A stretch of DNA of 64,000 nucleotides from Dehalococcoidia bacterium (lineage in GTDB: Bacteria > Chloroflexota > Dehalococcoidia > Lucifugimonadales > GCA-2712585): the NCBI GenBank assembly GCA_965208725.1, contig CBDBPI010000002.1, positions 936,427-1,000,426 of the forward strand, given 5' to 3'. The notes under the pieces are model-generated. The model did no database searches, was not told where the DNA came from, and was given only the letters and a program-made list of their open reading frames with translations. The translations under genes were made by a program, and so were the position numbers. The number at the start of each line of letters is the position of its first letter. Positions within the stretch are counted from its first letter, which is position 1. Positions 5,223-30,887 of the stretch are shown piece by piece.

Positions 5223-8200
5223 CTACCGCAATAGCCTATCCAATAGTCCCTCTAGAGGAAACCCATCGATTTCCCAGACTGACCTGGCGATGCTTATTCG
5301 CTTATTCCCGCCCCTCACGATCAGACTCACCCCATCAGCGCTCTTGTTGATAATCTGGCCTTCGGCCAGTTCAAGGTGATCAAGGTACTTGCATAACCCT
5401 TCCACACGTTCACCAATGTCCCCTACGAATCGCAGATCGTCCTTGACAACGTCCAAGGTTGGTTCAACATCCGAATCCACTGGAACGACACAGAGAAGGA
5501 AATGGTCCCCCTTTTCTACCGCGGTCCGCGCTTGCCGGGGTGTCATTCGTGCGTCATTTGAGCGGGTTGCCTTTACCTCCACAAGCCAGCAATCATTCTC
5601 TCTAGATATCTTCAACTGGCCTGCGTCGTCCTCTGTTTTGCCCTCAGCCTCATCTGATGCCAACTTGACCGCGAGGTCGGAGCCGACTCCGGTTCGCTCG
5701 ACAACAAACCCCTTCTTCTTCAGGGCTTTCTCAACAAGGCTTTCGACGAGATTGCCAAATTGCTGATTGCGACGAACCTCTTGCCGCTCTTTGTCGAGGT
5801 CTTCAAGGTCGTTAAGGATCCTCCCGTCTTTGCTGAGTAGCTCCAAGAAATTGGGAACTTTGTCCAGCAGGTCGGGTTCATTCCCTGTCGCGATCAGTAT
5901 CTTCATGAGCTTGTTGTCCACTTTAACACGGGCCTGGGCGTCCTCAGAAATCGACTCTCTAAACAGGTCAAAGCGAGAAACTCCAATGGCTTCAAAAAGC
6001 CTGTCGCCAATGGGATTGTCGGGAAACGGAAGTGTGTCGTCATGACGTCGCAACCGGCCGAGTGAATGAGCGGTCGGCGTTGCGTGTCGGTCATTGCCGA
6101 GTGGCACCCAGCTGTTTTCGACCACCGTCACCAACCATCGGCTCTGGTAATAGTAGTGATCGTCACCGCACGTGCAAGCTGCCGTATTCGTTTCCAATCC
6201 CTGGGCGTCATTCACAACCAACCATTCAGTTACGAAGCGCCAAAAAAGACAAGCACGACGCAGGCTCCTTCCGGCCCGCTCGATAGCTCGACCGCGTCCC
6301 CTGAGATAAACAACGTATGTTAAATCAACTTCCTCACGTGCTCTATGTTCCGCCCCCTCCGCCGACTTTGGCAGGGGCTCATCCGGAAGAAATCTGGGAC
6401 TAAACTTCCTCGATGCCATTATTGATGTTCTAACGATGTCTAGACCCGCCAGTGTCTGCCACACATTCGCGTCAGGGATACCAGCGTAAAACTCTGTTGA
6501 CAATATTCTGGATGGTGGGAAGAGTTCCGAGAATGGCTGCAAGTCTTCGTCCCAAGCAGGGACCGGGGCCAAGGGAATATCTTCGCCTTGCACCTCCTCA
6601 GTACCTAGCCTAACGATCTCTATGTCACCGCCCTCCTTCCTTTGTGAAAACCCAGGGAATCCACTTAGAAGATCCCACTTCTCATGCTCAACTATCCAAG
6701 CGAATGCACGAGTGCTGGCAAAGGTGAAGCTGCCGCCCAAATGGCCGCCCACGGCCATTTCGTTGAGCTTGGCAATGATTTCTTTGACTACCTCCCGGTT
6801 TTCTTTGACCCCCTTGCCGTCCTCGTCAGAAAGAGAAGCAAGACGTTTGTCACGAAGCTGCTCCCGCAGGTTTATATCAATGCTATCGGCTATGCCCTTC
6901 AGTTCTTCATCTATACCGCCGTCGCGATAAAGGCCTGACAGCTCACGAAGATGTCCTGCCTGATTCAGGATTATTTGCCGATTACTAACCTCCCCTGCAT
7001 GAACGCCGGCCCTAAGGAACGCTAGAACATCATCCAGCCATTCGGCGGCACCCACGCCTTCCACCAGGGCATTCTGGAGATTATTGAGGCTGCCGTAGAT
7101 CTGCCCATTTGACCCTATCGCCATACTTTCAATTCTGCAAGCGAGCATGCCTCCGTCGATTACGCCGCTGAATTCGGTTGAGGCACATTCCCTCAATCCG
7201 GCCCAGCTCTTCACCGCTCTGTTCCAGCCGGCGACCTCTCTCCGTCTTGGCAGCCTTGGACGCAGTGCTTTGAGACCACTTAACAAGCCCCAGAGAGCTA
7301 CAACGTCCTCGTCTTCTTCGGCGTTGGGAAGGACAGACTTCAAGGGCGGCAATGCACCTTCGCCATATTCGCAGAGGACTGCAGGAGTACCAAGTAAAGG
7401 GTTCAGCAGATTTTCAATGAGATGTCGACGGAGCTTTTCGGAGACCAGCCAGTCCCTATCGAGGATACGTGGCATCTCCGCCAGTACGAATACATCGTCC
7501 CAAGCCGACGCGCCCGCAAACTCAATCATCTGGATAAGCAAAGTACAGGCTTCCGCCACAACCTCCTGATTGGTGAGGTTGGCCTTGTCTTTGTCGTTCA
7601 GCCAAAGATTCACCCCGTCCCGGTCCTCGTCTGACGGGGTGAATTGAAAACTGTTGATCACGGCGGGGAAACTGAAGCTTTCTGTTCCAATCAGCGGAAG
7701 GCCTAGAAACAACTTTGGAGTACCTGCAGCCTGTAGACAGGATCTGGATTCCCCTATCCTCTGTGTCGGCACTGCAATAGAGGTATCACCCCTCCTGATC
7801 AGGAGAAACTTACTGTCGAGGGAACTGCTGGGACTTCGCCGCCGCACAGTAATTTCCTGCATTCCACAATCTTTTAGCTGTGTGCGTTCAGATACATTGA
7901 AACAGAAGGCTCCGTCTGGAGACTGAAGGTCTAATGCACTGAACTCTTCATTGAACGCAAGGATGAAAGGAGCCAACCTCTCTAGGCTGGAGATACCCTG
8001 GGTTACCACCTCGTCCCCTGCCCCATCTTCAACTGAATATCGGAACCTAGTCGTGAAACCGTGTGACAAGTGCACCGGATCTTCACACGCCAGAGAAGCA
8101 TTAAATCTTCTTGCCGATTCTCTCATATCGACATCTATTGACTGGATCGACGTGGGCACCCTTCGCACGGGAAAATTGAAACCCCGGCCGTCAACAAGCC

Positions 8201-8582
8201 GCCCCGAGACAAAGATCTCTCGGGAAAGCAGATGTGTCGTGAGCAACCCACTTCCATATTGCCCCAACTTCGATCTGTCCTCGGCCTTTGTTGATCCGTG
8301 ATAGATTATGCGAGCTATTTCTCTCCTTTCGAAGTGGCGCCCATTGTGTTCAAGCAGGACTTGTCCCTGGTCATATTTAACTGAGCACCTTAGGCTTCTT
8401 GGGCCGTCAGGTGCAGCGTCACGTGCATTCTGCAGCAGCTCCCATATCCAACGTGTTTGCACACGGTCCCGTCTTTCCTCCAGTTTCTTGAGGAGTTGAT
8501 ATACACGCTGCGCATTTGTCGAGGTGAGCGTGTCGCGCTCGATCTCATCCCAATCACGTTCGTCAAGCATTACCTTCTCCAA
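5223..8582 (-). CDS. Sacsin/Hsp90-like GHKL ATPase fused to a C-terminal DUF3883 (PD-(D/E)xK-like) domain, 1119 aa
   Basis: N-terminus has WIWELLQNARDA (ExxxNxxDA N-box) and GQYGSGLLTTH. C-terminus has GSDLAV...CWLVEVKAT...FLLCVV (D...ExK). Confidence 0.65.
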   Translation of the reverse strand: MEKVMLDERDWDEIERDTLTSTNAQRVYQLLKKLEERRDRVQTRWIWELLQNARDAAPDGPRSLRCSVKYDQGQVLLEHNGRHFERREIARIIYHGSTKAEDRSKLGQYGSGLLTTHLLSREIFVSGRLVDGRGFNFPVRRVPTSIQSIDVDMRESARRFNASLACEDPVHLSHGFTTRFRYSVEDGAGDEVVTQGISSLERLAPFILAFNEEFSALDLQSPDGAFCFNVSERTQLKDCGMQEITVRRRSPSSSLDSKFLLIRRGDTSIAVPTQRIGESRSCLQAAGTPKLFLGLPLIGTESFSFPAVINSFQFTPSDEDRDGVNLWLNDKDKANLTNQEVVAEACTLLIQMIEFAGASAWDDVFVLAEMPRILDRDWLVSEKLRRHLIENLLNPLLGTPAVLCEYGEGALPPLKSVLPNAEEDEDVVALWGLLSGLKALRPRLPRRREVAGWNRAVKSWAGLRECASTEFSGVIDGGMLACRIESMAIGSNGQIYGSLNNLQNALVEGVGAAEWLDDVLAFLRAGVHAGEVSNRQIILNQAGHLRELSGLYRDGGIDEELKGIADSIDINLREQLRDKRLASLSDEDGKGVKENREVVKEIIAKLNEMAVGGHLGGSFTFASTRAFAWIVEHEKWDLLSGFPGFSQRKEGGDIEIVRLGTEEVQGEDIPLAPVPAWDEDLQPFSELFPPSRILSTEFYAGIPDANVWQTLAGLDIVRTSIMASRKFSPRFLPDEPLPKSAEGAEHRAREEVDLTYVVYLRGRGRAIERAGRSLRRACLFWRFVTEWLVVNDAQGLETNTAACTCGDDHYYYQSRWLVTVVENSWVPLGNDRHATPTAHSLGRLRRHDDTLPFPDNPIGDRLFEAIGVSRFDLFRESISEDAQARVKVDNKLMKILIATGNEPDLLDKVPNFLELLSKDGRILNDLEDLDKERQEVRRNQQFGNLVESLVEKALKKKGFVVERTGVGSDLAVKLASDEAEGKTEDDAGQLKISRENDCWLVEVKATRSNDARMTPRQARTAVEKGDHFLLCVVPVDSDVEPTLDVVKDDLRFVGDIGERVEGLCKYLDHLELAEGQIINKSADGVSLIVRGGNKRISIARSVWEIDGFPLEGLLDRLLR

Positions 8583-9014: not shown

Positions 9015-9200
9015 TCATAGCAGATCAAGAATCCTTGGGTCTGGGTTGATGCCCGGTTTTAGGAGGGCTCTTGCGTTCATGTACTTCTTCGCGGTGTCTC
9101 TGTGGATGCCGAGTTCCCGTGCTATTCCTCGAATCGACAGACCCTGGCGCTTCGCTCTCTGCACCGCCTTCCACCTGGCTGTCTGCAGCAGCGGCGACAC
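9015..9200 (-). pseudogene. IS21-family IstA N-terminal HTH remnant
   Basis: RWKAVQRAKRQGLSIRGIARELGIHRDTAKKYM matches the IstA HTH. It stops after 61 aa, and 8600-9014 shows only broken transposase-like frames. Confidence 0.5.
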
Positions 9201-9205
9201 TCTTC

Positions 9206-9364
9206 TTATCTAGTGCCAACCAACATTCCTAGAAAGGCCCCCATTGCAGCACCACCCAATATGCCAACTGGCATGTCAAGGCTCTGAATCTTTGCAGCCA
9301 ATATTCCCCCAAGAATCGCAAATGCAACCATACCAATCCCTGCTCCGACTACCATCTTTTGCAT
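9206..9364 (-). CDS. 52-aa glycine-zipper membrane peptide (below the 60-aa ORF-track cut-off)
   Basis: ATG preceded by AGGAGG at a 5-nt spacing. Translation: MQKMVVGAGIGMVAFAILGGILAAKIQSLDMPVGILGGAAMGAFLGMLVGTR. Begins 8 nt after the stop of the upstream gene. Confidence 0.5.
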   Translation of the reverse strand: MQKMVVGAGIGMVAFAILGGILAAKIQSLDMPVGILGGAAMGAFLGMLVGTR

Positions 9365-9372
9365 GGGGCCTC

Positions 9373-9977
9373 CTATCTGCGTCTACTGGCTTGAGGGGAT
9401 AGCATTCGAATCTTGCGTTTCTTCGATGGCTGACGAACTCTAAGCCCTCTAAGAACGTCTATACGGTGCTCTATCAAACCAAGGATACCGTGAGAATGCT
9501 CTGGCCATAAGTCGGTCTTCGCCGCAGTTAATCCGTAGTGATCAACGTAGGAGAGCCTATAAAAGAAAGGCTCGACAATGTCCTTGAAAAAAATTCCATC
9601 CCGAGCGGTGGGTCCCATGGATATGGAAATCCGAGACATGCCTCTCCTGTGGGGTAAAAGTGTAGGTCCTCGACCGACATATCGTACCTATCAGCAATCC
9701 ATTGGTGTCTCAGGCCAGTCTCATAGACCTTTGGCCACTTTGTTGAGTGTTCAATGTCCAATTCCATCCTGATACTGAATCTGTCGGTGATAAACGTCGC
9801 CTGAGTTCGAGCTGCTGGATGTCGGCTACTTACAAGGGTTGCAGTATTTCTATCGAAATATGCTGAAACTTCTAGCAAGCCTCGAATAATGGATGGGTGA
9901 CCTCCGGAATATAGCCGGGGGTGACGTTTCAAAAGCCACCAAAGATCTCCTGGGATGACTTTCACTGCGGAAGCCAC
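9373..9977 (-). pseudogene. Unknown-family gene (~201 aa if repaired), split by a frameshift in a homopolymer run
   Basis: ORFs 9528..9977 and 9373..9639 overlap in adjacent frames. They fuse (...PPLGMEFFFKDIVEPFFY...) if the A7 run at 9587-9593 is read as A8. The start overlaps the TIR gene stop by 16 nt. Confidence 0.5.
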
Positions 9978-10645
9978 GTATTAAGGTACGGCTTCCTCGG
10001 AGTTGCCGTTGAAATCAAGCTAGTCATTGCTCCGGTTTGCGACGATGCATTGGGCTTAGAATATGAACCATCTGACGCGGGGCGTACCTCAGGACGACCG
10101 GCTGTTTGACTCAGTGAGAGATTTCGCCTAAGCTTCCGCCTCCCATTACTGACTAGCTTCCGGTTGTCTTCAGATTCCCGCGCTTGAAACGCCTCTTCGA
10201 TCCACTTTGACAGTTGGGTCCGGCTTTTCGGATATGGAAAATACTTGGCATATCCTGACTCCCAGTTGTCGGCGAATCGATCGGGCAGGATGGCTTGGCT
10301 CAATCTTGGAGACAAGATTGCAAGTAGGCCGTTAGGTAAGCCCGCTTTCGGACCTTGATGCAAGCTTGCAGCAATTTCCCAATCCACGAACTTCCTAGTC
10401 CATGTTTCCTTGCCGACAAAAAGCAAAGTTACTGTGGAGTCCTGGATGTGATCTTCGCGGATGCGTCGCATGACGTAATCGTCGTCGTCGCTATCAATCA
10501 GCTTATCCAAAGTCTGGTCACTGCCGACTGCTCTAGCTATAAACACATCTCGCTCATGGTCAAATTTTTCAATGAACTCGTCAACTTCTTCTTGGTCTTC
10601 GTGATGATATGAAATAAACGTCTTGTGCCGAACTTGCTCTGTCAT
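9962..10645 (-). CDS. TIR-like (DUF1863 / ThsB-like) protein with a low-complexity C-terminal tail
   Basis: KTFISYHHEDQ strand-1 start and TLLFVGKETWTRKFVDWEIA. Paralogous to 30237..30800. ATG 10645 follows AAGGAG; the ORF track extends to 10723. Confidence 0.7.
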   Translation of the reverse strand: MTEQVRHKTFISYHHEDQEEVDEFIEKFDHERDVFIARAVGSDQTLDKLIDSDDDDYVMRRIREDHIQDSTVTLLFVGKETWTRKFVDWEIAASLHQGPKAGLPNGLLAILSPRLSQAILPDRFADNWESGYAKYFPYPKSRTQLSKWIEEAFQARESEDNRKLVSNGRRKLRRNLSLSQTAGRPEVRPASDGSYSKPNASSQTGAMTSLISTATPRKPYLNTWLPQ

Positions 10646-10740
10646 TCTGGTATTCTCCTTTTGGTTTTCGCATACCTGCAGTCCATGTCCGAACTCGCCC
10701 TTGTTGATTGGGTTAGTTGACATAGTATAGGTCTCTGTGA

Positions 10741-10771
10741 TCTAGCTGTCAAACAGTCACGCTCTAGCTGT
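10741..10771. promoter_or_regulatory. Candidate operator: TCTAGCTGT direct repeat in the divergent TIR / XRE intergenic region
   Basis: TCTAGCTGT occurs at 10741-10749 and 10763-10771 (22-nt spacing). A third CTAGCTG lies at 10820-10826, next to the XRE RBS. Confidence 0.3.
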
Positions 10772-10837
10772 GGAACATTGACTAGGGTATGTATTGTCGC
10801 TACTCTGTGGGGATAGTTGCTAGCTGGAGGTGACCTC

Positions 10838-11233
10838 ATGTCTCTCGGTAATTATCTGCGGCGGGTGAGGCATGAGCTTGAGCTCTCGTTGCGGGACGTC
10901 CACCGCCTAGCAAGAGATAAACAACTCGGGGCTGAACTAAGTAGCGGCTATCTCAGCATGCTGGAGCGTAACGAGATTAAGGAGCCCTCTCCGAGGATTC
11001 TACACACGCTCTCCACCATCTACGATGTCGACTACATCGACTTGATGCGTAGGGCTAGGTATATTCCATCAGAATCGGTTGTCCGGAAAAGGCAGGCAGC
11101 TTTCGTAGCATTTAAAGGAGCTTCTCAGCTATCCAAGGAGCAACAGGAGCGGATTCAGCGCATCATCAATTTTGAACTGAGTGAAAGCCGTAAGGCGAAT
11201 CGACGTAATTTGCCAAGACATACCGATGGCTAG
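10838..11233 (+). CDS. XRE-family HTH regulator (CapH-like position)
   Basis: LGNYLRRVRHELELSLRDVHRLA...SSGYLSMLERNE is a Cro/C1-type HTH. GGAGG RBS before ATG 10838. Confidence 0.8.
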   Translation: MSLGNYLRRVRHELELSLRDVHRLARDKQLGAELSSGYLSMLERNEIKEPSPRILHTLSTIYDVDYIDLMRRARYIPSESVVRKRQAAFVAFKGASQLSKEQQERIQRIINFELSESRKANRRNLPRHTDG

Positions 11234-12194
11234 GATTATAAACTCCGATCGGCTCGCGATTAGAGCTGAAGCTGAACGATTTCTTGCAACACACGGCTTT
11301 TCCACTCCTCCCTTGCCGCCAGATCAAGCGCTCTCGGCACAAAGCCTAGTAGTAGCACAGCTCACGCTAGACGATCTTCTGGCTAAAGTTAGCCTACCTG
11401 CCAAAGACAACCAGAGTATTCAAGCTATGCTGGACACGCAAGAGCGAGCTGTGGCTTTCAAACGTGGGCTCCATTCCCAAAAGCGGAATTGGGGTTCACT
11501 TCACGAAGTGGCTCACGATTACCTCCCTTGGCAACGAGAACTGCTATATTGCTGTCCATTACTTTGGCTACCTGAGAATGTACAAAAGCAGTTTGAAGCG
11601 GAGGCGGACATCTTCACAGCAGAGGCCTTTTTCTTCGGGCAAAGTTTCCGGGACAATGCGTTTGCCGGGGACATAAGTCTCAGCACAGCAATTGAACTTG
11701 CTACTCAGGTATACGGGACTTCCCTACACTCTACGTTCGCTCACAATGTTGAAGAAAGTCCTGTGCCCCGGTGTTTGCTTGTGTGGAGGCCAAAGGCCAA
11801 AAACGGACAACAATGCTGCAATGAGTTGGCACTTAAGTACTATGTGAAATCGAAGGGTTTTCGTGGTCATGTAGGCCCAGGACAGATTGCAGATCCGGAT
11901 GGAGTATTGACCAAACTGTTTATGAACTCCAACCTTGGAGTGACAAGGCATGAGGTGGCACTAATTGATAGATCCGGACAGCACTTTTCTGTGCAGGCAG
12001 AATCCTTCTCAAATTCCTACACCGTGTTTACCTTAACCCCAATCCACCGAAGAAGTAGGCGGGAGGATGTGGAAACGGGGAAGAGAAAGTGCTCCTTTGA
12101 ATCTGGGATAATGGTTTTCACGCCGAAAACCGATCCAGAACAAGGAGCACCCAATAGATGCTATCATCTGAGCGTCCCGACCGCATCTCCGTAG
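11226..12194 (+). CDS. ImmA/IrrE-family Zn metallopeptidase (CapP-like position), 3' end displaced by an IS1380 insertion
   Basis: HEVAH motif (WGSLHEVAHDYLPW). The start overlaps the XRE stop. After 12036 the frame reads into the IS. Deleting the IS restores ...YTVFTLIGQPTPRSKQLAASPSNGK-stop (13754-13812). Confidence 0.7.
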   Translation: MARIINSDRLAIRAEAERFLATHGFSTPPLPPDQALSAQSLVVAQLTLDDLLAKVSLPAKDNQSIQAMLDTQERAVAFKRGLHSQKRNWGSLHEVAHDYLPWQRELLYCCPLLWLPENVQKQFEAEADIFTAEAFFFGQSFRDNAFAGDISLSTAIELATQVYGTSLHSTFAHNVEESPVPRCLLVWRPKAKNGQQCCNELALKYYVKSKGFRGHVGPGQIADPDGVLTKLFMNSNLGVTRHEVALIDRSGQHFSVQAESFSNSYTVFTLTPIHRRSRREDVETGKRKCSFESGIMVFTPKTDPEQGAPNRCYHLSVPTASP

Positions 12195-13753
12195 CCTTCG
12201 ATGATCCCCGACTGGTCGCCAATGCGGGACTGATGGTGCCGCTCACCCTGGCCCATCATCTGGGTCTGGGTGAACTGGTGGACAACCACCTTGATCTGGG
12301 AGATGCGCCGGGGAGAGCGAATGGGGGAGACAAGATGCTGACGTTGGTGGCATCGGCCCTGGCAGGGGGCGACTGCATCGACGACGCGGACGCACTGCGA
12401 GCCGGAGGTACCGAGAGGGTGCTGGGATGTAGGGTGAAGGCGCCATCGACCCTGGGTACATTCCTACGCAGCTACAGGTGGGGCCATGTCCGTCAGTTGG
12501 ACCGGGTGAGCCGGGAACTGCTGAGACGGGCATGGGACTCCGAGGCAGGACCAGGCGAGTCACCGTTGACCATCGATCTAGACTCGACTATCTGCGAGAC
12601 CTACGGGCTGGCCAAGGAGGGAGCACGCCGCCACAACTACAGCGGCCAGCGGGGCTACCACCCGCTGGTGGCCGTGGCTGCGGGAACAGGCGAGGTGGTG
12701 ATGGCGAGGCTGCGACAGGGTAGAGCCAACACCGGTCGGGGTGCAGCCCACTTTCTGCGTGAGACGGTGAGCCGTGTGCGTCACGCGGGGGGTGAAGGTC
12801 AACTCACCGTGCGGGCCGACAGCGGCTTCTACAGCCGGGACATCGTAGCCATGTGTCGCGACAAGGGTGTCCGCTTCTCCATCACCGTCAGACAGCACAG
12901 GCACCTGCGCGATCTCATAGAGGAGATACCCGAGGATGCCTGGACTCCCATCCCCTACTGGATGGACGGAGCCGCCGACGTGGCCGAAACCACCTACACG
13001 CCCTTTGCGAGCAAACCCGATGCCGTGCCGGTACGGCTGATAGTGCGCAGGGTGAAACCCACCCCAGGCTCCCAACTGGCCCTTATCGCCAACTACAGCT
13101 ACCACGCCTTCATCACCGACCGGGAGGGAGACACCCTGGAGTTGGAGGCCGACCATCGCCGCCACGCAGAGGTGGAGAACGCCATCCGCGACCTCAAGTA
13201 CGGTGTGGGACTCAACCATCTGCCCTCGGGACAATTCTCCGCCAACGCCGCCTGGATGGCCGTGCAGGTGATAGCCCACAACCTGGCCCGTTGGACTTCC
13301 CGCATCGGTCTGGATATGCGGGTGATGAACACAAAGACCCTCAGGCGCCGTCTCTTCTCCCTGGTCGGACGGCTCACTCGCTCGGCCCGTCGGTTCACCC
13401 TGCATCTCCCGCAGCGCTGGCCTTGGGCGGACCTCTTCAGCCGTGCTCTGGAGAGACTACGCGCCCTGCCAGCACCTTCCTGACACACTCCATCAACGTC
13501 TGGACCCGTCCTCGGTCTGTCCCATCGCCTGGCCAAACCCCGTCCGGGTAAGTCCCCTGTGTCTCCTCCCACCCCTTGCCCTCCAGATCCGGGTCAAAAC
13601 CAGCCTCCGGCCCTCTCAACATCCCTTCAATCCCGCCCCTGCTCTACCCTTCCGTCCTCTACATAGTCCTCAGGACCTTATCCTCCCCTTTCCTCGTCTC
13701 CCATCGCCAGCCTGAACAGCCTAACCAAATCCCTTCGGTGGATTCGGGCTTAA
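12033..13753 (+). mobile_element. IS1380-family insertion sequence, apparently intact
   Basis: Imperfect terminal inverted repeats CCCCAATCCACCGAAG (12037-12052) and CTTCGGTGGATTCGGGC (13733-13749). Each is flanked by TTAA (target duplication or outermost IR bases). GC is much higher than the neighbours. Confidence 0.8.
12158..13483 (+). CDS. IS1380-family DDE transposase
   Basis: 441 aa. Segments such as VANAGLMVP, GGDKMLTLVASALAGGDCIDDAD, RADSGFYS and HRRHAEVENAIRDLK are typical of IS1380 transposases. Confidence 0.85.
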   Translation: MLSSERPDRISVAFDDPRLVANAGLMVPLTLAHHLGLGELVDNHLDLGDAPGRANGGDKMLTLVASALAGGDCIDDADALRAGGTERVLGCRVKAPSTLGTFLRSYRWGHVRQLDRVSRELLRRAWDSEAGPGESPLTIDLDSTICETYGLAKEGARRHNYSGQRGYHPLVAVAAGTGEVVMARLRQGRANTGRGAAHFLRETVSRVRHAGGEGQLTVRADSGFYSRDIVAMCRDKGVRFSITVRQHRHLRDLIEEIPEDAWTPIPYWMDGAADVAETTYTPFASKPDAVPVRLIVRRVKPTPGSQLALIANYSYHAFITDREGDTLELEADHRRHAEVENAIRDLKYGVGLNHLPSGQFSANAAWMAVQVIAHNLARWTSRIGLDMRVMNTKTLRRRLFSLVGRLTRSARRFTLHLPQRWPWADLFSRALERLRALPAPS

Positions 13754-14064
13754 TTGGCCAGCCGACTCCCAGGTCAAAGCAATTGGCGGCGAGCCCCTCC
13801 AATGGCAAATGACTGAATCAACTTCTCCCTTGGGCGGTGTGTTTCCCAATTCCCGGATTTCCGCAGTCAAACTAGCGAGGAACCTAGCACTGGTTCGTTG
13901 GGCCCTTTGAGAGATAGCTTATAACAGAGAACCTGCCAGTAGATTGATCCAGTCCGTTCGATATCGTTACGGGCAGTCCCGTTATCAATCACATTAAAAC
14001 TGAACAGCATTGAGATGGGAGACGGATGACTTGAGTCTTGACGACCGCCAGCTAGAGGTGAACC

Positions 14065-14553
14065 ATGAATTTGCGAAAACTTTTCAAGGATTTTCGCTTA
14101 GAGAAGATTAGACTCAGTCCAAAAGGGGCCATGGTAGAGGTGACTTTTAGACCGGCTGACAGAGATGCTGCCTGGGAGCTTTATGTTGAGATGCTCACAA
14201 GGGTTGTCACTCAGCCGTTACCTATAGAGTCTGGTGATGAAAGGAGTTCATTAGAAAGCGTCTACGCTCTTTTCGGACTTACCCGAGATACATTACGTCG
14301 GCACGGAAGGGGAACAATTCAATTCACGAAAGTGGCGATTCCCGTGCTGAACCAGATTGTACGCCCCTTCACTGCGAAGTGGCATAAAGAGAGTTTGGCT
14401 GGAGCCTTTGAACAAAAGGAAATGTGTGATGAGTTTCGCGACGAACTCGCAAAACTACAACACGAACTGCGCAACTACAATTGCATGTTGGCGGAGATCG
14501 CTGGAGTGGAAGACTTGACTTACTTGGAGGAGACTCAAGAATCTGAGCAATGA
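14065..14553 (+). CDS. Hypothetical protein (162 aa), helical, no recognised motif
   Basis: Isolated ORF with a plausible RBS (GAGG) between the IS1380 copy and a dead transposase. Codon usage resembles the island. Confidence 0.4.
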   Translation: MNLRKLFKDFRLEKIRLSPKGAMVEVTFRPADRDAAWELYVEMLTRVVTQPLPIESGDERSSLESVYALFGLTRDTLRRHGRGTIQFTKVAIPVLNQIVRPFTAKWHKESLAGAFEQKEMCDEFRDELAKLQHELRNYNCMLAEIAGVEDLTYLEETQESEQ

Positions 14554-14739
14554 CGAGAGACTCAGTATGTTTATCACTTACCCCCACAACCTTGAACAAC
14601 GGGCTAAGGATGAATTTGTTCGTATGGTGGGAGATTACCTGGTGATTGGCGTTATCCATTCTTGCCGCCTGTCGCCTCATTCAAAATTGTTACCGAAGAA
14701 ATTTCAGCTTTGGTTGACGCCCACTGGTCCGATGACACT

Positions 14740-16291: not shown

Positions 16292-17743
16292 ATGACAACT
16301 TCACCATACGACGGACTTGACCAAGTGCTGGCGCTCCTTGATGAGTTGGCAAGAGAGACTGCCATTGGAGAATACCTTTTTAGGGGCGAACCCCGTCACT
16401 ATGCTAAGGTATCATCAGGTTTGTTCCGGCACTACGAGAGCTTGGAGAGTATGAGCTTCGACATAGGGGTCGTCCAAAGTGAAATCCTTGAACAAGCCAA
16501 AAGGTACACGCTTGAAGAAAACGATCTAGAAATCCTAGCTGCGATCCAGCATTTCGGTGGCAGGACCAATCTCATAGACTTCACGAGCGATCTTCTTATT
16601 GCCCTTTTTTTTGCTTGCGATGGACATCCTCAAGTTGATGGAAGGATCATTCTGCTTAGGGTTTCCGACGACATAAGTGACTGTATCAGGAGGCCCCGCA
16701 ATCCAGTCAATCGAATCCTTGCCCAGAAAAGCATCTTTGTCCAGCCACCAAAGGGATACATAGAAGACGGCAATATGGTTGTTATAAATGTACCCCATGA
16801 CATTAAGGCATCTATACTAAGGTTCTTGCAAACTCGCCATGGTATTTCCTCACATGCAATCTATAATGACCTTCATGGGTTCATCCGGTTCCAAGATCTT
16901 CACGAAAGCTCATACGCGGCCTTTAGTGCCGGTATGACCCATGGGTCCAGAGGGAAACAAGCCAAGGCGATTGAAAGCTACACCAAAGCCTTAGAACTAA
17001 ACCAGCAATTCGCCCCAGCCTACAACAATCGAGGAACTGCATACATAGACAGCAAACAATATGACCTTGCCATCGATGACTTTGACAAGGCAATTGAAAT
17101 CGATGCCAAACTCTCCGCCGCATACTTTAATCGGGCAATCGCTTACCGACACAAAGGCGAACTAGAAAGGGCCATGGAAGACCTAGACAATGCGATTGTT
17201 CTAGACCCAGGATTCGCCAAAGCCTACAGCGACCGAGGCAATTTGCACTTGGACGATGGCAAATATAATCGGGCCATGCAAGACTACAACAAAGCACTAT
17301 CGTTGGACCCAAATGAACCAAAGGCATACTTGAACCGAGGAAACGCATTTCTGCATTTGGAAGAATACGAAAAGGCCATTGACGACTATGACTACGCAAT
17401 CACACTCGCACCCAATTATGCCGAAGCATACTGCAACCGGGCCTCTGCATTCGTCGAGATGGGAGAATTTAGCAGCGCAATTGAAGACTGCAACAAGACT
17501 CTTGATCTAGGGTTCGAAAGAGGACGAGTCTACTACCTGAGGGGCATCGCTTGGTTAGGACTTTCGAACTGGAGTGATGGCAAAAAAGATCTGAATATTG
17601 CACGTAACAATGGAGTCGACATTTCAAAAGTATTTTGCGAGAGGTGGAAGCACGTTGGCAAATTTGAGAAAATCTTCAACATCAAAATACCAGAAGAAGT
17701 AGCCAAAATGTTAGATTCGACAACTGAGCAAAATGACGACTAG
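16292..17743 (+). CDS. FRG-domain protein with C-terminal TPR repeats
   Basis: YLFRGEP...AAIQHFGGRTNLIDFTSDLLIALFFA is the FRG-domain signature. It is followed by ~7 TPR units (AYNNRGTAY, AYFNRAIAY, AYSDRGNLH, AYLNRGNAF, AYCNRASAF). Confidence 0.7.
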   Translation: MTTSPYDGLDQVLALLDELARETAIGEYLFRGEPRHYAKVSSGLFRHYESLESMSFDIGVVQSEILEQAKRYTLEENDLEILAAIQHFGGRTNLIDFTSDLLIALFFACDGHPQVDGRIILLRVSDDISDCIRRPRNPVNRILAQKSIFVQPPKGYIEDGNMVVINVPHDIKASILRFLQTRHGISSHAIYNDLHGFIRFQDLHESSYAAFSAGMTHGSRGKQAKAIESYTKALELNQQFAPAYNNRGTAYIDSKQYDLAIDDFDKAIEIDAKLSAAYFNRAIAYRHKGELERAMEDLDNAIVLDPGFAKAYSDRGNLHLDDGKYNRAMQDYNKALSLDPNEPKAYLNRGNAFLHLEEYEKAIDDYDYAITLAPNYAEAYCNRASAFVEMGEFSSAIEDCNKTLDLGFERGRVYYLRGIAWLGLSNWSDGKKDLNIARNNGVDISKVFCERWKHVGKFEKIFNIKIPEEVAKMLDSTTEQNDD

Positions 17744-18103
17744 CGTAATTCGAAGTTAAAGAGGGGATCCATATCCTTCCGTATGGCAATGCAACCAGCC
17801 AGTACGCCAAGTTTGAACTCATTACCGTATATTTGGTACGGAGAGACAAGAACCATGAGTTTATGTCTCTAGAGGACATAGGAAATATATCCGGCGCGCG
17901 CGGGATTGGAATAGTCTAAAGCACAGGCTGCAAAAGGGACTTTTAGACGCTCCGTGCGCAATCGAGAAACGTCATGTCGTGATGGGAATTCCCTTCTCTA
18001 TTTGGATTACACTTTGACTAGCAGTCAATTCACAAGAAATGGCGAGTACGACAAGCCAGAGATGCCAGGTGGAAACAGCGATCTGACCTAGTTTGGCAAT
18101 GAT

Positions 18104-20908
18104 GTGAATCCCGAAGAACAGGCACGCGCAAACATAGACCAGTTCCTACAGCAGGCGGGGTGGGTTATCCAGGACGCCGACGCCATCAACCTGTACGCTG
18201 GCAGCGGGGTTGCTGTGCGCGAGTTTCCCTTGAAGCAGGGGCACGGGAAGGCTGACTACCTGCTCTATGTCAATCAGAAGGCGGCGGGAGTCGTAGAAGC
18301 CAAGCCAGAGGGATCCACGCTCACTGGGGTGGAAATCCAGTCCGAGAAGTACAGCACTGGCCTGCCTGAAAATCTTCCCGCTTACCACCGTCCGCTCCCG
18401 TTCCTATACGAAAGCACCGGCGTTGAGACGCAGTTCACCAACAGACTCGACCCGGAGCCGCGAAGCCGTCTTGTTTTCTCCTTCCATACCCCTGAATCAC
18501 TGGCGAAGTGGCTCGGAGCATCTGTAACAACCAACACTGACACAAATCGGATAGCAGAAGATAGAGGAACCTACCTAGCGGCTTACAACTTGCGTCAGAG
18601 ACTAAAGGCCATGCCGCCCCTGAACTCATTGGGCCTTTGGTCGGTACAGGAGAAGGCCATCAGGAATCTGGAAGAGTCCCTGGCTGCGGGCAGGCCGCGA
18701 GCGCTGGTGCAGATGGCTACCGGAAGTGGCAAGACCTTCATGGCCTGCAACCAGGCGTACCGGTTAATCAAGCACGCGGGAGCCAAACGAGTTCTGTTCC
18801 TCGTAGACCGCAGCAACCTGGGACGTCAGACTCTCCGTGAGTTCCAGGGATTCACCCCTCCTGATGAGCGGCACAAGTTCACCGAACTGTACAATGTGCA
18901 GCTTCTTCAATCCTCTCGCATCGACCCCGTAAGCCGGGTGTGCATTGCCACCATCCAGCGGGTCTACTCCATCTTGAAGGGTGAGGAACTTGCCCCCGAT
19001 CTTGACGAGTTTTCCGGCTTCGGCGAGGCCGCCTTTCGGCGTGAGCCTGTCCCCGTAGAGTACAACCCTGACATTCCCATCGAGACCTTCGACTTCATCA
19101 TAACTGACGAGTGCCACCGCTCCATCTACAACCTGTGGCGGCAGGTGTTGGAATACTTCGACGCCTTCCTCATAGGCCTGACTGCCACTCCTTCCAAGCA
19201 GACCTTCGGGTTCTTCCAGCAGAATCTCGTCATGGAATACACCCACGAGCAGGCAGTGGCCGATAACGTGAACGTCGACTTCAACACCTATCGAATTCGC
19301 ACCAAAATCACCGAGCAAGGATCCACGGTGGAAGCAGGGTACTACGTTGACCGGCGTGACAGGCTTACACGCAAGCTCCGGTGGGAGCAGTTGGAAGAAG
19401 ACCTGACCTTCGGTCCCAACCAGCTTGACCGCGACGTGGTAGCGGAGGACCAGATTCGCACCGTCATCCAGACGTTTAAGGTTAAGCTGTTCACTGAGAT
19501 ATTCCCCACCCGCCGGGACGTGCCCAAGACCATTATTTTCGCCAAGGATGACAGCCACGCCGACGACATCGTGCGCACCGTGCGGGAGGTGTTCGCCAAA
19601 GGCAACGACTTCTGCCAGAAGATCACTTACAAGACCACCGGGGCGAAGCCGGAAGACCTGTTGACCGCCTTCCGCAACATCTACAATCCCCGCATAGTCG
19701 TCACGGTGGACATGATCGCCACCGGCACAGACATCAAGCCGGTTGAGATTGTCTTCTTCATGCGCAATGTTCGCAGCCGCAGCTTCTTCGAGCAGATGAA
19801 GGGACGCGGCGTCCGCACCATCTCCTCCACTGACTTCAACACTGTGACCCCGGACGCCCACAACAAGGACCGCTTCGTCATCGTCGATGCAGTTGGTGTG
19901 ACGGAAACCAAACTCTCCGACTCCTACTCCCTTGATAGAAAGCCGACCGTGTCCTTCGACAGACTGTTGGACCGAGTGAGCATGGGAGACCGGGATCCGG
20001 AGGTTCTCTCTTCCCTCGCCAGCAGGCTCGCCCGGTTGGACCGACACCTGACACCCAAGGACCGTGAAGCCATAGAAGAGGCGTCTCAGGGTGTGCCACT
20101 CCAGACCCTAATATCCGGCCTGGTCAACGCCACAGATCCGGACGCCGCCTTGGATGCTGCCCGGGTTGCGACAGGGCTGGACGACCCGCCGGAATCGGCA
20201 GTGACCAACGCTCAGAAGCAGTTGTTGGAAGACGCCGCACGGCCCTTTGCTTCGAACCCCGACCTGCGACAGAAACTGGTGGACATTCATCGCTCCTATG
20301 AGCAGACCATAGACAAGGTGAGCGCCGATAGTGTCTTGGAAGCTGGATACTCCGATGAGCAGGCAAGGGCTATCGTACAGTCCTTCCAGGAGTACATTGA
20401 GGAGAACCGGGACGAGATAACGGCCTTGCAGGTGCTTTACGAGCGGCCCTATAGTCAACGGTTGAGCTACGCTGATATCAAGGCTCTGGCTGATGCTCTG
20501 AAATCGCCACCCCGGTCATGGACCACCGATAGGCTCTGGGAGGCTTACCGGCAGCTGGACAGGTCAAAGGTGCGTGGTTCAGGCCAGCGAACCCTTTCCG
20601 ACATCGTGTCCTTGGTGCGCTATGCCATAGGAGGAGCGGATGAGTTGGCGCCCTTCTCCGACGGCGTACACGAACGTTTCCGGGGCTGGCTGGCCATGCA
20701 GGAGACGACTGGCTCTAACTTCACGGATGAGCAATTGCGTTGGCTGGAACGCATCAGGGACCACATCGCTGGCAGCGTCAGTATGGAGTTGAGCGATTTC
20801 CAGTACGCCCCTTTCAATCAGCAGGGCGGCCTGAGCAAGGCTTACGAACTGTTCGGGGATGAATTGGCCGGACTTCTTGAGAACCTGAACGGGGCTTTGG
20901 TAGGGTAG
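18104..20908 (+). CDS. hsdR: Type I restriction enzyme R subunit (EcoEI-like, with EcoEI_R_C-type tail)
   Basis: N-terminal HsdR_N (ARANIDQFLQQAGWVIQD). Helicase motifs MATGSGKT, ITDECHRS, GLTATP. Conserved C-terminal tail. Confidence 0.9.
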   Translation: MNPEEQARANIDQFLQQAGWVIQDADAINLYAGSGVAVREFPLKQGHGKADYLLYVNQKAAGVVEAKPEGSTLTGVEIQSEKYSTGLPENLPAYHRPLPFLYESTGVETQFTNRLDPEPRSRLVFSFHTPESLAKWLGASVTTNTDTNRIAEDRGTYLAAYNLRQRLKAMPPLNSLGLWSVQEKAIRNLEESLAAGRPRALVQMATGSGKTFMACNQAYRLIKHAGAKRVLFLVDRSNLGRQTLREFQGFTPPDERHKFTELYNVQLLQSSRIDPVSRVCIATIQRVYSILKGEELAPDLDEFSGFGEAAFRREPVPVEYNPDIPIETFDFIITDECHRSIYNLWRQVLEYFDAFLIGLTATPSKQTFGFFQQNLVMEYTHEQAVADNVNVDFNTYRIRTKITEQGSTVEAGYYVDRRDRLTRKLRWEQLEEDLTFGPNQLDRDVVAEDQIRTVIQTFKVKLFTEIFPTRRDVPKTIIFAKDDSHADDIVRTVREVFAKGNDFCQKITYKTTGAKPEDLLTAFRNIYNPRIVVTVDMIATGTDIKPVEIVFFMRNVRSRSFFEQMKGRGVRTISSTDFNTVTPDAHNKDRFVIVDAVGVTETKLSDSYSLDRKPTVSFDRLLDRVSMGDRDPEVLSSLASRLARLDRHLTPKDREAIEEASQGVPLQTLISGLVNATDPDAALDAARVATGLDDPPESAVTNAQKQLLEDAARPFASNPDLRQKLVDIHRSYEQTIDKVSADSVLEAGYSDEQARAIVQSFQEYIEENRDEITALQVLYERPYSQRLSYADIKALADALKSPPRSWTTDRLWEAYRQLDRSKVRGSGQRTLSDIVSLVRYAIGGADELAPFSDGVHERFRGWLAMQETTGSNFTDEQLRWLERIRDHIAGSVSMELSDFQYAPFNQQGGLSKAYELFGDELAGLLENLNGALVG

Positions 20909-20986
20909 GGTCAGTCGTGAGGACCTTGTTGGAGTGTTCAATGCCCTTGTCTCATTATGAGTTAACCGATAAGTGGAGGTAAGCCG

Positions 20987-21187
20987 ATGACTACCGCTGA
21001 TGAAATCAAGCAGGCAGTCTTGAGTCTTCCAGAATCCGAATACGACAAGATCATGGACTGGCTTTACGCGTTGGCAGAGGATGCATGGGACCGACAGATC
21101 GAGGAGGATGTCCTAGCCGGCAAGCTGGACTTCCTGAAGGAGGAGGTCGAACGAGCCAAGCGGGAAGGCACACTTAGGGAGTTATAG
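20987..21187 (+). CDS. Putative antitoxin (addiction-module component)
   Basis: 66-aa acidic helical protein (LSLPESEYDKIMDWL) ending 1 nt before the toxin-like gene starts. Confidence 0.45.
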   Translation: MTTADEIKQAVLSLPESEYDKIMDWLYALAEDAWDRQIEEDVLAGKLDFLKEEVERAKREGTLREL

Positions 21188-21188
21188 T

Positions 21189-21443
21189 GTGCATCGCACT
21201 ACTCCCCAATTCTGGTCGCGCTTTGGACGGCTGCCTGAAGCAATTCAGAGGACCGCCCGGCGAAACTTCCAGTTGCTCAAGGATAGTCCCAGGCACCCGT
21301 CGCTTCATTTCAAGAAAGTCAACGAATACTGGGTGGTTCGAGTTGGCCGTTCCTACAGGGCTGTTGCCATCGAAGAAGGTCAAGACCTGTTCTGGGTCTG
21401 GATCGGTAGTCACGACGAGTACATGCGGGTTATTGGCCAATAG
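21189..21443 (+). CDS. RelE/ParE-superfamily toxin-like protein
   Basis: 84 aa. ...RHPSLHFKKV...VRVGRSYRAVAIEEGQDLFWVWIGSHDEYMRVI is the pattern of the ParE/RelE-like family. Confidence 0.55.
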   Translation: MHRTTPQFWSRFGRLPEAIQRTARRNFQLLKDSPRHPSLHFKKVNEYWVVRVGRSYRAVAIEEGQDLFWVWIGSHDEYMRVIGQ

Positions 21444-21485
21444 GCATCAAGGCTCAAATGAACTTTAGGTGCAAGGAGGGTTTCG

Positions 21486-21710
21486 ATGCCTCCAAGTGAA
21501 ATAGTTTTCCAAGTGTGGGATTCGCCTGATAGAGGATACGAGGCTCGCGCCGTTGGACACAGCATCTTTACCGAGGCTGATGACTGGGAGCATCTCAAGT
21601 TTATGCTGAGGGATGCGGTACAGTGCCACTTTGATGATGGTGAAGCTCCCCAGTCAATTAGAATCCACTTGGGACAAGCCGAGCTGGAAAGTACACTGGG
21701 AATCCTCTAA
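21486..21710 (+). CDS. HicB-like / UPF0150-fold small protein
   Basis: IVFQVWDSPDRGYEARAVGHSIFTEADDWEHLKFMLRDAVQCHF matches the small family often mislabelled as a 2-oxoisovalerate dehydrogenase subunit. No hicA lies next to it. Confidence 0.4.
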   Translation: MPPSEIVFQVWDSPDRGYEARAVGHSIFTEADDWEHLKFMLRDAVQCHFDDGEAPQSIRIHLGQAELESTLGIL

Positions 21711-22753
21711 TGACGAATAGCTTAGATTTGTCCAGCATCTTTAACGTGTACTCAATGCGTGAACGCCCGCCGAACAATGCAGGACAAAGCCTGCCCAGCG
21801 AGTTCAGGAACCGCGTCTGGCTTTTCTGCACGGAGATGGTTCATCCTTACGATCACTATTCGCGAACAGGCTACAAAATCGCTGACTTCTGGATGACCTT
21901 GCGGGACAAGCTCCGGTATAAACAAGGGCGTGTCCAACTCACGGATAGAGGGCAACCCACGGTTATCATGGAAGTTGAAGCGTTCCTTTTGAAATGCAGC
22001 GATGAAGACTATCTCGACTTTATCGAGATGTTCTTCCAATCCGAAGACCTACCGAAGTATTTCTCGGATAGTGAATTAAAGGAGGCCGTAGGCAACATCA
22101 ACAGGTTCTTCACCGAAGACGACCTGCCATACTCTCTCACTGAGTTCTCAATATCCAAATCGAAAACGCTGAAGCCGAGAATTAATAGACTGTTGTTTCA
22201 GTTGTTCGGAGGCTTTAGGTTTAGATGGTCAGAATCACCTTGGGTGAAGTCGTCCCACATGCAACCTAAATCCCATCCCATCAGGATTCCGACCATAGAG
22301 GCATATCCACAGATAATTCGTCGTGACAGCCAGCTACTACATCAGACTGCCATACAACCCGCTCTGGAGCTGCTATCAAATCCCGCTTTTCGTTCAGCTA
22401 ATTTGGAATTCCTTGGGGCTCTGTCCGACTTCAGAAATAAGGACTACGCGGACTGCGTGGTAAAGTGTGGAAGCGCCTTTGAAAGCGTGATGAAGGTGAT
22501 CTGCGACCAGAAAAAATGGCCATATAAGCAAACCGATACGACTGAGCCATTGCTCAATGCGATCTTTCAACGGGCAGGCTTAGAGCCGTTTTTCAAGCAG
22601 CCCATCATGTTGGTTGCGACTATCAGGAACAGACTAAGCAGCGCACACGGGTCCGGCGCTAAATCTCGGGTCGTGCCCAAACACGTTGCAAATTATTCCA
22701 TCAATGCGACCGCGTCCGCAATTTTGCTTTTGGTAGAAGAGACAAATCCTTGA
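21710..22753 (+). CDS. AbiJ-N / Abi_C-like abortive-infection protein (HEPN-type C-terminus)
   Basis: N-terminus has LPSEFRNRVWLF, as in AbiJ N-terminal domains. C-terminus has IRNRLSSAHGSG (Rx4-6H) followed by VANYSINATASAILLLVE, as in Abi_C. Confidence 0.5.
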   Translation: MTNSLDLSSIFNVYSMRERPPNNAGQSLPSEFRNRVWLFCTEMVHPYDHYSRTGYKIADFWMTLRDKLRYKQGRVQLTDRGQPTVIMEVEAFLLKCSDEDYLDFIEMFFQSEDLPKYFSDSELKEAVGNINRFFTEDDLPYSLTEFSISKSKTLKPRINRLLFQLFGGFRFRWSESPWVKSSHMQPKSHPIRIPTIEAYPQIIRRDSQLLHQTAIQPALELLSNPAFRSANLEFLGALSDFRNKDYADCVVKCGSAFESVMKVICDQKKWPYKQTDTTEPLLNAIFQRAGLEPFFKQPIMLVATIRNRLSSAHGSGAKSRVVPKHVANYSINATASAILLLVEETNP

Positions 22754-29360: not shown

Positions 29361-29750
29361 GTGGCTACTCTGAACATTTTCGTGAGCTTCGAGTTCGACA
29401 AGGACAACGACCTCAAGAACAACTTCATTGAGCAGGCTAGAGAATATACGCAACATCGCATTCGCAACTTCTCGCTCAATGAGGCTTACCCGGATGAAGT
29501 TTGGAAAAACAAGGCAAGGGCAGCCATTAGTGAGTGCGACGTAGTCGTGGTGCTGATTGGTCAGGACACCCACAATGCTCAAGGCGTTATAGTAGAGACT
29601 GACATGGCCCGAAGCCTGAACAAGCCTGTTATCCAAGTCAGGCCCCAGGGCAGGCCGTACAATGGGCTAACCCGCCTGGAAGAACCGATCCCATGGAAAT
29701 GGAAAAGGATAAGAGCCGAGTTGGATGTTATTGCAAAAAGAGGGAGATAA
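29361..29750 (+). CDS. Small TIR/MTH538-like protein (129 aa)
   Basis: NIFVSFEFDKDNDL start, CDVVVVLIGQDTH, GVIVETDMA Glu. Flavodoxin-like alternation typical of TIR-like domains. Confidence 0.55.
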   Translation: MATLNIFVSFEFDKDNDLKNNFIEQAREYTQHRIRNFSLNEAYPDEVWKNKARAAISECDVVVVLIGQDTHNAQGVIVETDMARSLNKPVIQVRPQGRPYNGLTRLEEPIPWKWKRIRAELDVIAKRGR

Positions 29751-29790
29751 ATATCCCTGTAGACTGCTGAGTAGGGGGCAGAGAAAACAA

Positions 29791-30222: not shown

Positions 30223-30236
30223 GCGGAGCGGCAGTA

Positions 30237-30800: not shown

Positions 30801-30887
30801 GGCAGTTGCAGATTCCTCTTTGCTTTGGGATTAGATGCGTGCCGACATCCAGGCCCGTTGGCGTCTATGCGAAAGGGTGTAATCGAA

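Follow-up and report, generated by a model that had tools for sequence, protein, structure and literature searches.

Type II-short CBASS (cyclic oligonucleotide-based antiphage signaling system; here E2-CBASS) combines a CD-NTase (nucleotidyltransferase of the cGAS/DncV-like kind), a standalone E2 (an enzyme of the ubiquitin-conjugating, or UBC, fold) and an effector. In the Serratia system the C-terminal tail of the CD-NTase inserts into the pocket of the E2, the residue after Gly406 is removed, and Gly406 becomes linked first to Cys101 and later to a lysine (bioRxiv 10.1101/2022.05.25.493364; PMC12948482); the catalytic cysteine and two histidines that give protease and ligase activity are reported to be conserved only in the E2s of E2-CBASS (bioRxiv 10.1101/2022.05.25.493364). 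Conjugation genes also occur in Thoeris operons, where a tailed TIR protein and an effector are accompanied by Cap2 and Cap3 (an E1-E2 fusion and a JAB peptidase) or by Cap9-11 (Yirmiya et al., bioRxiv 10.64898/2025.12.03.692087). With respect to regulation, DdrO is the substrate of IrrE, and the CapP-type protease is activated by single-stranded DNA (bioRxiv 10.1101/2022.04.27.489752). Here we describe a locus in a stretch of 64,000 nucleotides from a Dehalococcoidia bacterium (assembly GCA_965208725.1, contig CBDBPI010000002.1, positions 936,427 to 1,000,426; hereafter the window) that we judge to be, with somewhat better than even confidence, a defense module under CapH/CapP-type regulation which has the architecture of E2-CBASS, in which a ThsB-family TIR protein replaces the CD-NTase and is acted on by the E2 through its tail as proposed below.

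The locus is situated in a defense island. An earlier reading of the DNA (the original prediction) had described a minus-strand operon headed by a ThsB-family TIR gene and divergent from a gene pair for an XRE protein and an HExxH peptidase, and both the layout and our profile matches agree with that description. Its list of parts was accurate as to sequence features and their positions, with the decisive gene, that of the E2, left unnamed. The main features are as follows (aa, amino acids; nt, nucleotides; ORF, open reading frame; RBS, ribosome-binding site; HTH, helix-turn-helix).

9962-10645, minus strand: gene for a ThsB-family TIR protein, 227 aa (Pfam ThsB_TIR, E 1.9e-19)
9373-9965, minus strand: gene for an E2 of the E2-CBASS type (UBC fold), 197 aa if repaired (PADLOC E2 models, hhalign)
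9206-9364, minus strand: gene for a 52-aa two-helix peptide (ORF and RBS visible; substitutions relative to locus L004)
10724-10752, minus strand: promoter of the TIR operon, TTGACA-17-TATACT (11/12 consensus matches)
10741-10782, no strand: two 20-nt direct repeats, putative XRE operators (core TCTAGCTGT)
10838-11233, plus strand: gene for an XRE/CapH-like HTH repressor, 131 aa (Pfam HTH_31, PADLOC capH)
11226-12036, plus strand: 5' part, 270 codons, of the gene for an ImmA/IrrE/CapP-like HExxH metallopeptidase (PADLOC capP, HEVAH motif)

The middle gene of the minus-strand operon had been reported as frameshifted and of unknown function. The frameshift is real, whereas "unknown" can be replaced, since PADLOC, hhalign and AlphaFold2 (AF2) modeling with Foldseek all identify the product as an E2, a result that changes the nature of the whole system. 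The gene is split into overlapping ORFs (9528-9977 and 9373-9639), both of which match PADLOC "E2" models. The break lies at a run of seven T residues at 9587-9593 (plus strand), the only homopolymer of at least 7 bases in the operon, and homologs align without gaps only when the run is read as T8 (PPLGMEFFFKDIVEPFFY versus PPLTLEYFLTDIVEPFFY), leading us to conclude that the defect is a 1-nt deletion in a homopolymer; it could be a long-read basecalling error. Programmed frameshifting at the run was ruled out, as the run is unique to this genome and absent from 18 homologous locus sequences. The overlap with the TIR gene also stands, but the proposed 16 nt (from the GTG at 9977) is less likely than a 4-nt GTGA overlap from the GTG at 9965, which we prefer because of the alignment with homologs.

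PADLOC CBASS E2 models, up to six of them, match the repaired window protein (E 1.8e-13) and all 59 of its homologs (best E 2.2e-15), nearly all of which come from metagenomes and most of which are unbroken proteins of 180-213 aa, typically 194 aa. No Pfam domain was found in any of the 59, searches of Pfam, NCBIfam and Protein Data Bank (PDB) sequences with the E2-like protein returned no match, and a scan of JGI metagenomes for the E2 gave none either; for this protein and the ImmA-like protein, useful matches came only from the PADLOC profiles and from a large search of representative proteins. In that search, a profile run against 1.84 billion representatives, 431 relatives reached E <= 1e-3; the long ones among them are SMODS/CD-NTase proteins that carry an E2 domain at the C-terminus and constitute the nearest outgroups. 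Alignment by hhalign with one such CD-NTase-E2 fusion (P0185) gave a probability of 100 and an E-value of 1.4e-41, with 38% identity over 172 residues, and the two proteins have in common the segments DLHFYPxGxCCLG, PFFYRLSYVD.YGL and DLWxEYxHG. The nearest standalone relative (P0181, 41% identical) is encoded directly after a CD-NTase gene in locus L025, where the operon of CD-NTase and E2 is preceded by a divergent pair of XRE and Peptidase_M78 genes. The AF2 model of the E2 has a pLDDT (predicted local distance difference test) of 85, and its PDB matches by Foldseek are almost all E2, UFC1 and UEV proteins, with UFC1, Cdc34, Ubc7 and UEV at the top. In a comparison of 79 diverse relatives no residues are invariant except Gly29, His102, Cys110 and His159, of which H102, C110 and H159 would parallel H87, C101 and H152 of the Serratia E2. 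Judged by these profile and alignment results, the middle gene belongs to the E2 family of type II-short CBASS.

To define the conserved unit, we retrieved 25 loci via E2 and TIR homologs, which include 15 distinct neighborhoods with both genes, counting the window. TIR and E2 genes are adjacent in 15/15, translationally coupled and usually overlapping by a few bases, and in every one the gene beside the E2 is a ThsB_TIR gene rather than that of a CD-NTase. The idea of a conserved gene trio did not hold up: in contrast to the TIR and E2 genes, the two-helix mini-peptide occurs in only 4/15 loci, and no other third gene is conserved with the pair across the 15. A JAB gene or E1 domain is likewise absent from the loci examined, where the E2, of 180-209 aa, stands alone. 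The E2 was present in only four of 185,579 species (one genome each), all four of them Dehalococcoidia metagenome-assembled genomes, and as all named source genomes are Dehalococcoidia, the module is so far confined to that class. Directly after the E2 gene, three loci carry a convergent unit of a TIR_2 gene (390-447 aa) and an LD_cluster2 gene (SLOG family, ~280 aa), which is either a TIR system in its own right or, possibly, the receiver of a signal:

L011, 6732-8920: TIR_2 + LD_cluster2 unit
L022, 6333-8431: TIR_2 + LD_cluster2 unit
L024, 6311-8334: TIR_2 + LD_cluster2 unit

The Pfam match bears out the ThsB family of the TIR protein (10645 to 9962), and the public gene call (P0060) agrees with the gene as drawn. 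An ATG at 10723 was considered as the start and ruled out, as it adjoins the -10 box and both the homologs and the public gene call begin with MT[ED]Q; indeed the homologs, which are 57-79% identical over nearly the full length, most of the tail included, all begin with MT[D/E]QVRHK. The glutamate of catalytic type is E90, inside FVDWEIA; D88, W89 and E90 are invariant in an alignment of 67 sequences and E90 aligns with the catalytic region of Bacillus cereus ThsB. The AF2 model (mean pLDDT 76) is ordered over residues ~1-198, comprising the core and the proximal tail, and disordered over residues 199-227, where pLDDT falls below 50; its best Foldseek matches in the PDB are TIR/ThsB structures, in keeping with the predicted fold.

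The tail of the TIR protein had been dismissed as ~60 aa of low complexity. The 67-sequence alignment contradicts this, and its conservation rules out plain low-complexity junk: a conserved segment (NGRRKLRRNLSPSQxAGRP..P..DGSY) is followed by a variable linker rich in Ala, Thr and Ser, and then by [T/A/S/V]PR[K/R/P]PYL at a frequency of at least 90% (P216, R217, P219, Y220 and L221 each at 90% or more) and 2-10 non-conserved residues. The window protein ends with TPRKPYL and six variable residues. PRxPY is found near the C-terminus in 82 of 87 full-length TIR homologs, 78 of which have Leu as the next residue. TIR homologs without an adjacent E2 (L017, an HTH-TIR fusion, and L018, which bears a C-terminal transmembrane helix) also have no PRxPY motif. 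The motif recurs on the partners of the related E2s, as the CD-NTase of L025 has a C-terminus of VVPRRPYAR (...SRSVVPRRPYAR) and 10 of 15 CD-NTase-E2 fusions checked have a motif of the same type (e.g., VTPRKPYA, VTPRKQYA, LPRPYA), followed by Ala in nine; in four fusions the E2 domain was mapped, and there the motif is placed ~15-25 residues ahead of it. At the level of sequence, then, the CD-NTases with which this E2 subfamily is partnered carry the same tail motif as the TIR proteins. A subfamily of the same TIR protein, of ~314 aa, has an N-terminal HTH_3 fusion (L017, 6001-6945; P0135, P0137, P0140, P0143 and P0148-P0150).

On the other strand the XRE gene starts 192 nt from the start codon of the TIR gene, and its stop overlaps the start of the ImmA-like gene at 11226 (ATGGCTAG), as had been described; the HEVAH motif of the ImmA-like protein was also confirmed, and the suggested resemblance to CapH/CapP is upheld by PADLOC matches to capP (2e-7) and capH (2.8e-3) in the window. 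Intact orthologs of the peptidase score 7e-11 and 1.5e-10 for capP, and the L001 ortholog of the XRE protein scores 1.7e-6 for capH. Among PDB sequences the XRE protein is best matched by DdrOC, a regulator of the DdrO type from Deinococcus, and by the immunity repressor 8bny. The ImmA-like proteins have an invariant Cys-Cys pair (LLYCCPLL) ~12 residues past HEVAH, which may resemble the cysteine-switch loop that has been reported in a third of CapP proteins. The pair is found, whole or as a remnant, in 10 of the 15 loci, and in L022 its position is held by a non-orthologous XRE gene (capH 1.6e-10) and a gene for an HExxH protein, a replacement that speaks for a functional connection and against simple conservation of gene order.

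The intergenic region between the divergent operons is conserved, with the TTGACA and TATACT hexamers of the TIR-operon promoter both kept in an alignment of eight loci. The sequence TCTAGCTGT, noticed earlier as a repeat, has exactly two occurrences in the 64 kb, at 10741 and 10763 (~0.3 expected by chance), each of them forming the core of one unit of a 20-nt direct repeat (10741-10760 and 10763-10782) which overlaps the -35 box and extends just upstream of it. In orthologous loci the equivalent places are taken by the palindromes GCTCTAGAGC and CGAGCGCTCG. The repeats are likely operators of the XRE protein, and the arrangement fits occlusion of the TIR-operon promoter by a repressor.

By analogy with Serratia, we propose that the E2, through Cys110 together with His102 and His159, docks the tail of the TIR protein, clips the variable residues past Leu221, and forms a thioester and subsequently an isopeptide with the new C-terminus, a reaction that would require neither E1 nor ATP. 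Such capture would prime the TIR protein or join TIR molecules to one another, turning on NAD+ cleavage. Because no third gene is conserved, the TIR protein is itself most likely the NAD+-consuming effector, and it may additionally make a signal for its variable neighbors. Transcription would be kept off by the XRE repressor bound at the two 20-nt repeats around the -35 box, and would be freed when the ImmA-like protease cleaves the repressor after DNA damage.

The third gene of the window operon, at 9206-9364, had been pointed out as a short ORF and is located as described, 8 nt past the stop of the E2 gene with a TAGGAGG RBS that overlaps this stop. Its 52-aa product consists of two hydrophobic helices with glycine-zipper character. 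The window, L004, L010 (52 aa) and L014-16 (55 aa, with the gene for a further 83-aa transmembrane protein after it) have a mini-peptide gene directly behind that of the E2, and the other 11 of the 15 loci are without one. The L004 peptide is ~65% identical to that of the window, although its gene is frameshifted by two 1-nt indels, and the substitutions between the two number 12, 5 and 20 at codon positions 1, 2 and 3, as expected of coding sequence. There is no detectable homology among the three types (window/L004, L010 and L014-16). As for conservation of the ORF, which had been put forward as a check, no homolog was found in 5.8 billion protein clusters and the frameshifted L004 copy is its sole relative. 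The codon pattern indicates that the ORF is a real gene, one that is an optional, lineage-specific accessory outside the core.

Several other features of the region bear on whether the module is intact.

12037-13748, plus strand: IS1380-family insertion sequence (IS; transposase ORF 12158-13483; Pfam DDE_Tnp_1_4, E 3.9e-63)
13754-13812, plus strand: displaced 3' end of the ImmA-like gene, 19 codons and stop (aligns to the ends of orthologous genes)
14065-14644, plus strand: downstream part of the XRE-ImmA operon, a 162-aa gene and the start of a second ThsB-like gene (L016 similarity)
9015-9200, minus strand: 61-aa HTH ORF adjoining the 3' end of the TIR operon (Pfam HTH_23, E 2.3e-6)

The ImmA-like gene was thought to have lost its last ~19 codons to the IS1380-type element; these codons in fact survive beyond it at 13754-13812. 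The element is bounded by terminal inverted repeats of 16 nt and by a target duplication of 5 bp (CTTAA, at 12032-12036 and 13749-13753), and its removal in silico restores an ImmA-like ORF of 289 aa. The same element, with a 441-aa DDE_Tnp_1_4 transposase, lies repeatedly in or beside the module in other loci (L009, L019, L020 and L021), and in L019 it sits within the ImmA-like gene. At the 3' end of the TIR operon, the ORF at 9015-9200 was found where an IS21 remnant had been reported, but the IS21 label was not confirmed, as tblastn with the IS21 proteins of related loci gave no match to this ORF; it is possibly the remnant of a transposase N-terminus.

Downstream of the IS1380 element, the 162-aa gene (14065-14553) has 76% identity to a 160-aa protein of L016, and positions 14555-14644 retain only the opening ~30 codons of another ThsB-like gene, the second in this region (57% over 30 aa relative to ThsB2 of L016). 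As these similarities indicate, the XRE-ImmA operon of the window formerly ran on into the 162-aa gene and a second ThsB gene, with the gene order of L014-16. The cargo differs among loci: in L001 (1201-3343), L008 (1733-3695) and L019-L021 a gene for a small RyR-domain protein and one for a large Abhydrolase-TPR-S-TIR_2 protein follow the ImmA-like gene on the same strand, and in other loci and the window the 160-aa unknown gene and the second ThsB gene stand in their place. The XRE-ImmA operon thus seems to drive variable TIR cargo.

These features can be read in other ways. One would place the activity in the 52-aa peptide, as a pore-forming or toxic effector of a three-gene ThsB operon that is expressed, or triggered by a product of the TIR protein, after de-repression by XRE/ImmA. 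E2-CBASS operons often use transmembrane effectors, four loci (the window, L004, L010 and L014-16) have a two-helix peptide gene with its own RBS right behind that of the E2, all four also have XRE/ImmA, and the concentration of window/L004 substitutions at third codon positions speaks for a translated product. However, 11 of 15 loci retain TIR and E2 genes without a peptide, the three peptide types are mutually unrelated and that of the window is without a database relative, and 52 aa made up of two helices leave no space for a ligand-sensing domain, all of which makes this account quite improbable to us. A reading closer to Thoeris would have the E2-primed TIR protein make a signal of the cyclic ADP-ribose type, to be read by SLOG/LD_cluster2 proteins, by membrane peptides or by proteins of nearby TIR modules, with the effector encoded elsewhere or variable from genome to genome. 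The same islands repeatedly contain additional ThsB genes and PDC-M50-like pairs, and the TIR_2 and LD_cluster2 (SLOG) genes follow the E2 gene in L011, L022 and L024. Yet the SLOG genes bring their own TIR partner, resemble independent systems and are adjacent in only 3/15 loci, each candidate effector is confined to about a quarter of the loci at most, and the window operon has no SLOG, SIR2 or Macro gene. We regard signaling of this kind as unlikely, even allowing that ThsB-family TIR proteins are normally signal synthases (bioRxiv 10.64898/2025.12.03.692087).

It is also conceivable that the module in this genome is an inactive relic, with an E2 pseudogene, an ImmA gene disrupted by an IS and an operon flanked by ISs. 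The E2 gene is frameshifted, an IS1380 element lies inside the ImmA gene, the downstream ThsB2 gene is cut to ~30 codons, an HTH remnant adjoins the operon, and the same IS family disrupts the orthologous loci L009 and L019. Nevertheless, the frameshift concerns a single base of an 8-T homopolymer in a metagenome contig of 1.8 Mb, and related assemblies whose contig names suggest long reads have similar single-base breaks (the L004 peptide and the L008 TIR genes); furthermore, the TIR, XRE and peptide genes and the promoter are intact, and the IS costs the ImmA-like protein just 19 of 289 residues, at its C-terminal end. Inactivity in this genome is therefore a real possibility, albeit one against which we lean.

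A number of observations weigh against the E2-CBASS-like module under CapH/CapP-type control that we favor. The predicted ligation residue of the TIR protein is Leu221 and not Gly, and in Serratia the change G406A was tolerated, whereas linkage was abolished by G406L and by G406V (bioRxiv 10.1101/2022.05.25.493364; PMC12948482), from which it follows that the chemistry or the cleavage site may differ, or that the motif may serve only for docking. The Foldseek matches to the E2 fold are weak (best E 6e-3, TM-score 0.38-0.46), the family could not be aligned to the solved Serratia E2 (SmE2), and a broader E2 profile run against the PDB matched SEC-C motifs only. Similarly, the ImmA-like protein has no Pfam, NCBIfam or PDB sequence match, its only match being PADLOC capP. 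Finally, no effector is conserved across the 15 loci, so that the choice between NAD+ depletion and a signal as the output is a guess, and TIR proteins of the ThsB family usually produce signals (bioRxiv 10.64898/2025.12.03.692087).

We offer, as a tentative extension that we think rather doubtful, the idea that the tail, its PRxPY motif and the E2 form a portable regulatory cassette for unrelated immune enzymes such as a CD-NTase or a TIR protein, in which E1-independent self-processing and ligation of a ubiquitin-like kind, at a Leu rather than a Gly C-terminus, would chain TIR molecules covalently ("poly-TIRylation"); their proximity would then assemble a composite active site and turn on NAD+ cleavage; the mini-peptides would possibly be conjugation targets or membrane anchors. 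TIR NADases need oligomerization, and if the favored reading holds, the module would provide a natural test case of whether covalent chaining can activate them, as well as of E1-free recognition and ligation of a protein C-terminus by an E2.

The island holds further candidate defense genes. Immediately beside the locus, 5223-8582 (minus strand) encodes a 1119-aa HATPase/NOV_C protein that matches TmtA of Tiamat (PADLOC E 2.3e-143). At 16292-25757 (plus strand) a gene for an FRG and TPR protein matching the PADLOC candidate PDC-S15 is followed by type I restriction-modification genes (HsdR, HsdS, HsdM), with an AbiJ/DUF7014-like gene inserted between hsdR and hsdS. A second TIR cluster at 29361-31868 (plus strand) comprises a 129-aa TIR-like ORF and genes for a 165-aa transmembrane protein, a ThsB-like protein (~30237-30800; 53% identical to ThsB2 of L016) and a 347-aa protein; the 165-aa protein is homologous to an L010 protein that matches PADLOC PDC-M50A, and the cluster looks like a PDC-M50-type candidate Thoeris-like system.

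If the favored reading is correct, the ubiquitin-like regulator of CBASS in its minimal form, an E2 alone, is not bound to cGAS-like cyclases, as the same E2 family and tail motif would have been transferred onto a TIR enzyme; the recently noted trading of accessory modules by CBASS and Thoeris would extend to the E2-only class, and a TIR-rich type of defense island restricted to Dehalococcoidia would gain an identity where standard annotation leaves "hypothetical" proteins. In accordance with the original prediction, the locus is not a named system, as assignment to E2-CBASS failed for want of a CD-NTase (no SMODS domain was matched in the window operon) and assignment to canonical Thoeris for want of an effector. 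The operon has none of the effectors recognized in canonical Thoeris (types I-XI), such as SIR2-SLOG, Macro-TM or caspase-like proteins, and Pfam and PADLOC scans of the window proteins agree with the earlier statement that it has no ThsA-type effector, with no SIR2, SLOG or Macro gene detected in it by the profiles; what it shares with these systems is a ThsB-family TIR protein with a catalytic Glu and a place in a defense island with more ThsB genes nearby. The Thoeris operons with Cap2 and Cap3 are similar in coupling a tailed ThsB TIR protein to ubiquitin-like conjugation machinery of CBASS origin. They differ in having an E1-E2 fusion, a JAB peptidase, a tail that ends in Gly and a separate effector, whereas the present module has just an E2, lacks E1, JAB and dedicated effector, and has a tail that ends in PY-L and variable residues. 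We found no description of an E2-only regulator paired with a ThsB TIR protein in searches of the literature or in the text and available supplements of bioRxiv 10.64898/2025.12.03.692087.

The regulatory genes resemble the CapH/CapP, DdrO/IrrE and ImmR/ImmA pairs (bioRxiv 10.1101/2022.04.27.489752) in that an HTH repressor gene overlaps an HExxH metallopeptidase gene, and CapH/CapP in particular in that the pair is divergent from a defense operon with repeats over its promoter, matches the capH and capP profiles and includes a DdrO-like XRE protein. The differences are that the sequence similarity is remote, with no match of the ImmA-like protein to Pfam Peptidase_M78 or to PDB sequences, and that the operon here runs on in several loci (into the 160-aa and ThsB2 genes, or into those of the RyR and hydrolase-TPR-TIR proteins). 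In comparison with E2-CBASS, the partner enzyme is a ThsB-type TIR protein and not a CD-NTase, the predicted ligation residue is Leu instead of the Ala of related CD-NTases or the Gly of Serratia, the window E2 is without the C-terminal SEC-C motif that many relatives bear, and there is no conserved effector gene. The likenesses are a shared E2 family (38-41% identity to E2s fused or adjacent to CD-NTases), a standalone E2 of the UBC fold with the Cys/His/His set invariant in the TIR-linked family, a partner enzyme whose extended, disordered tail carries a short conserved motif and then dispensable residues, and the coupling of the enzyme and E2 genes, which in L025 likewise stand beside a divergent pair for an XRE protein and an M78 peptidase.

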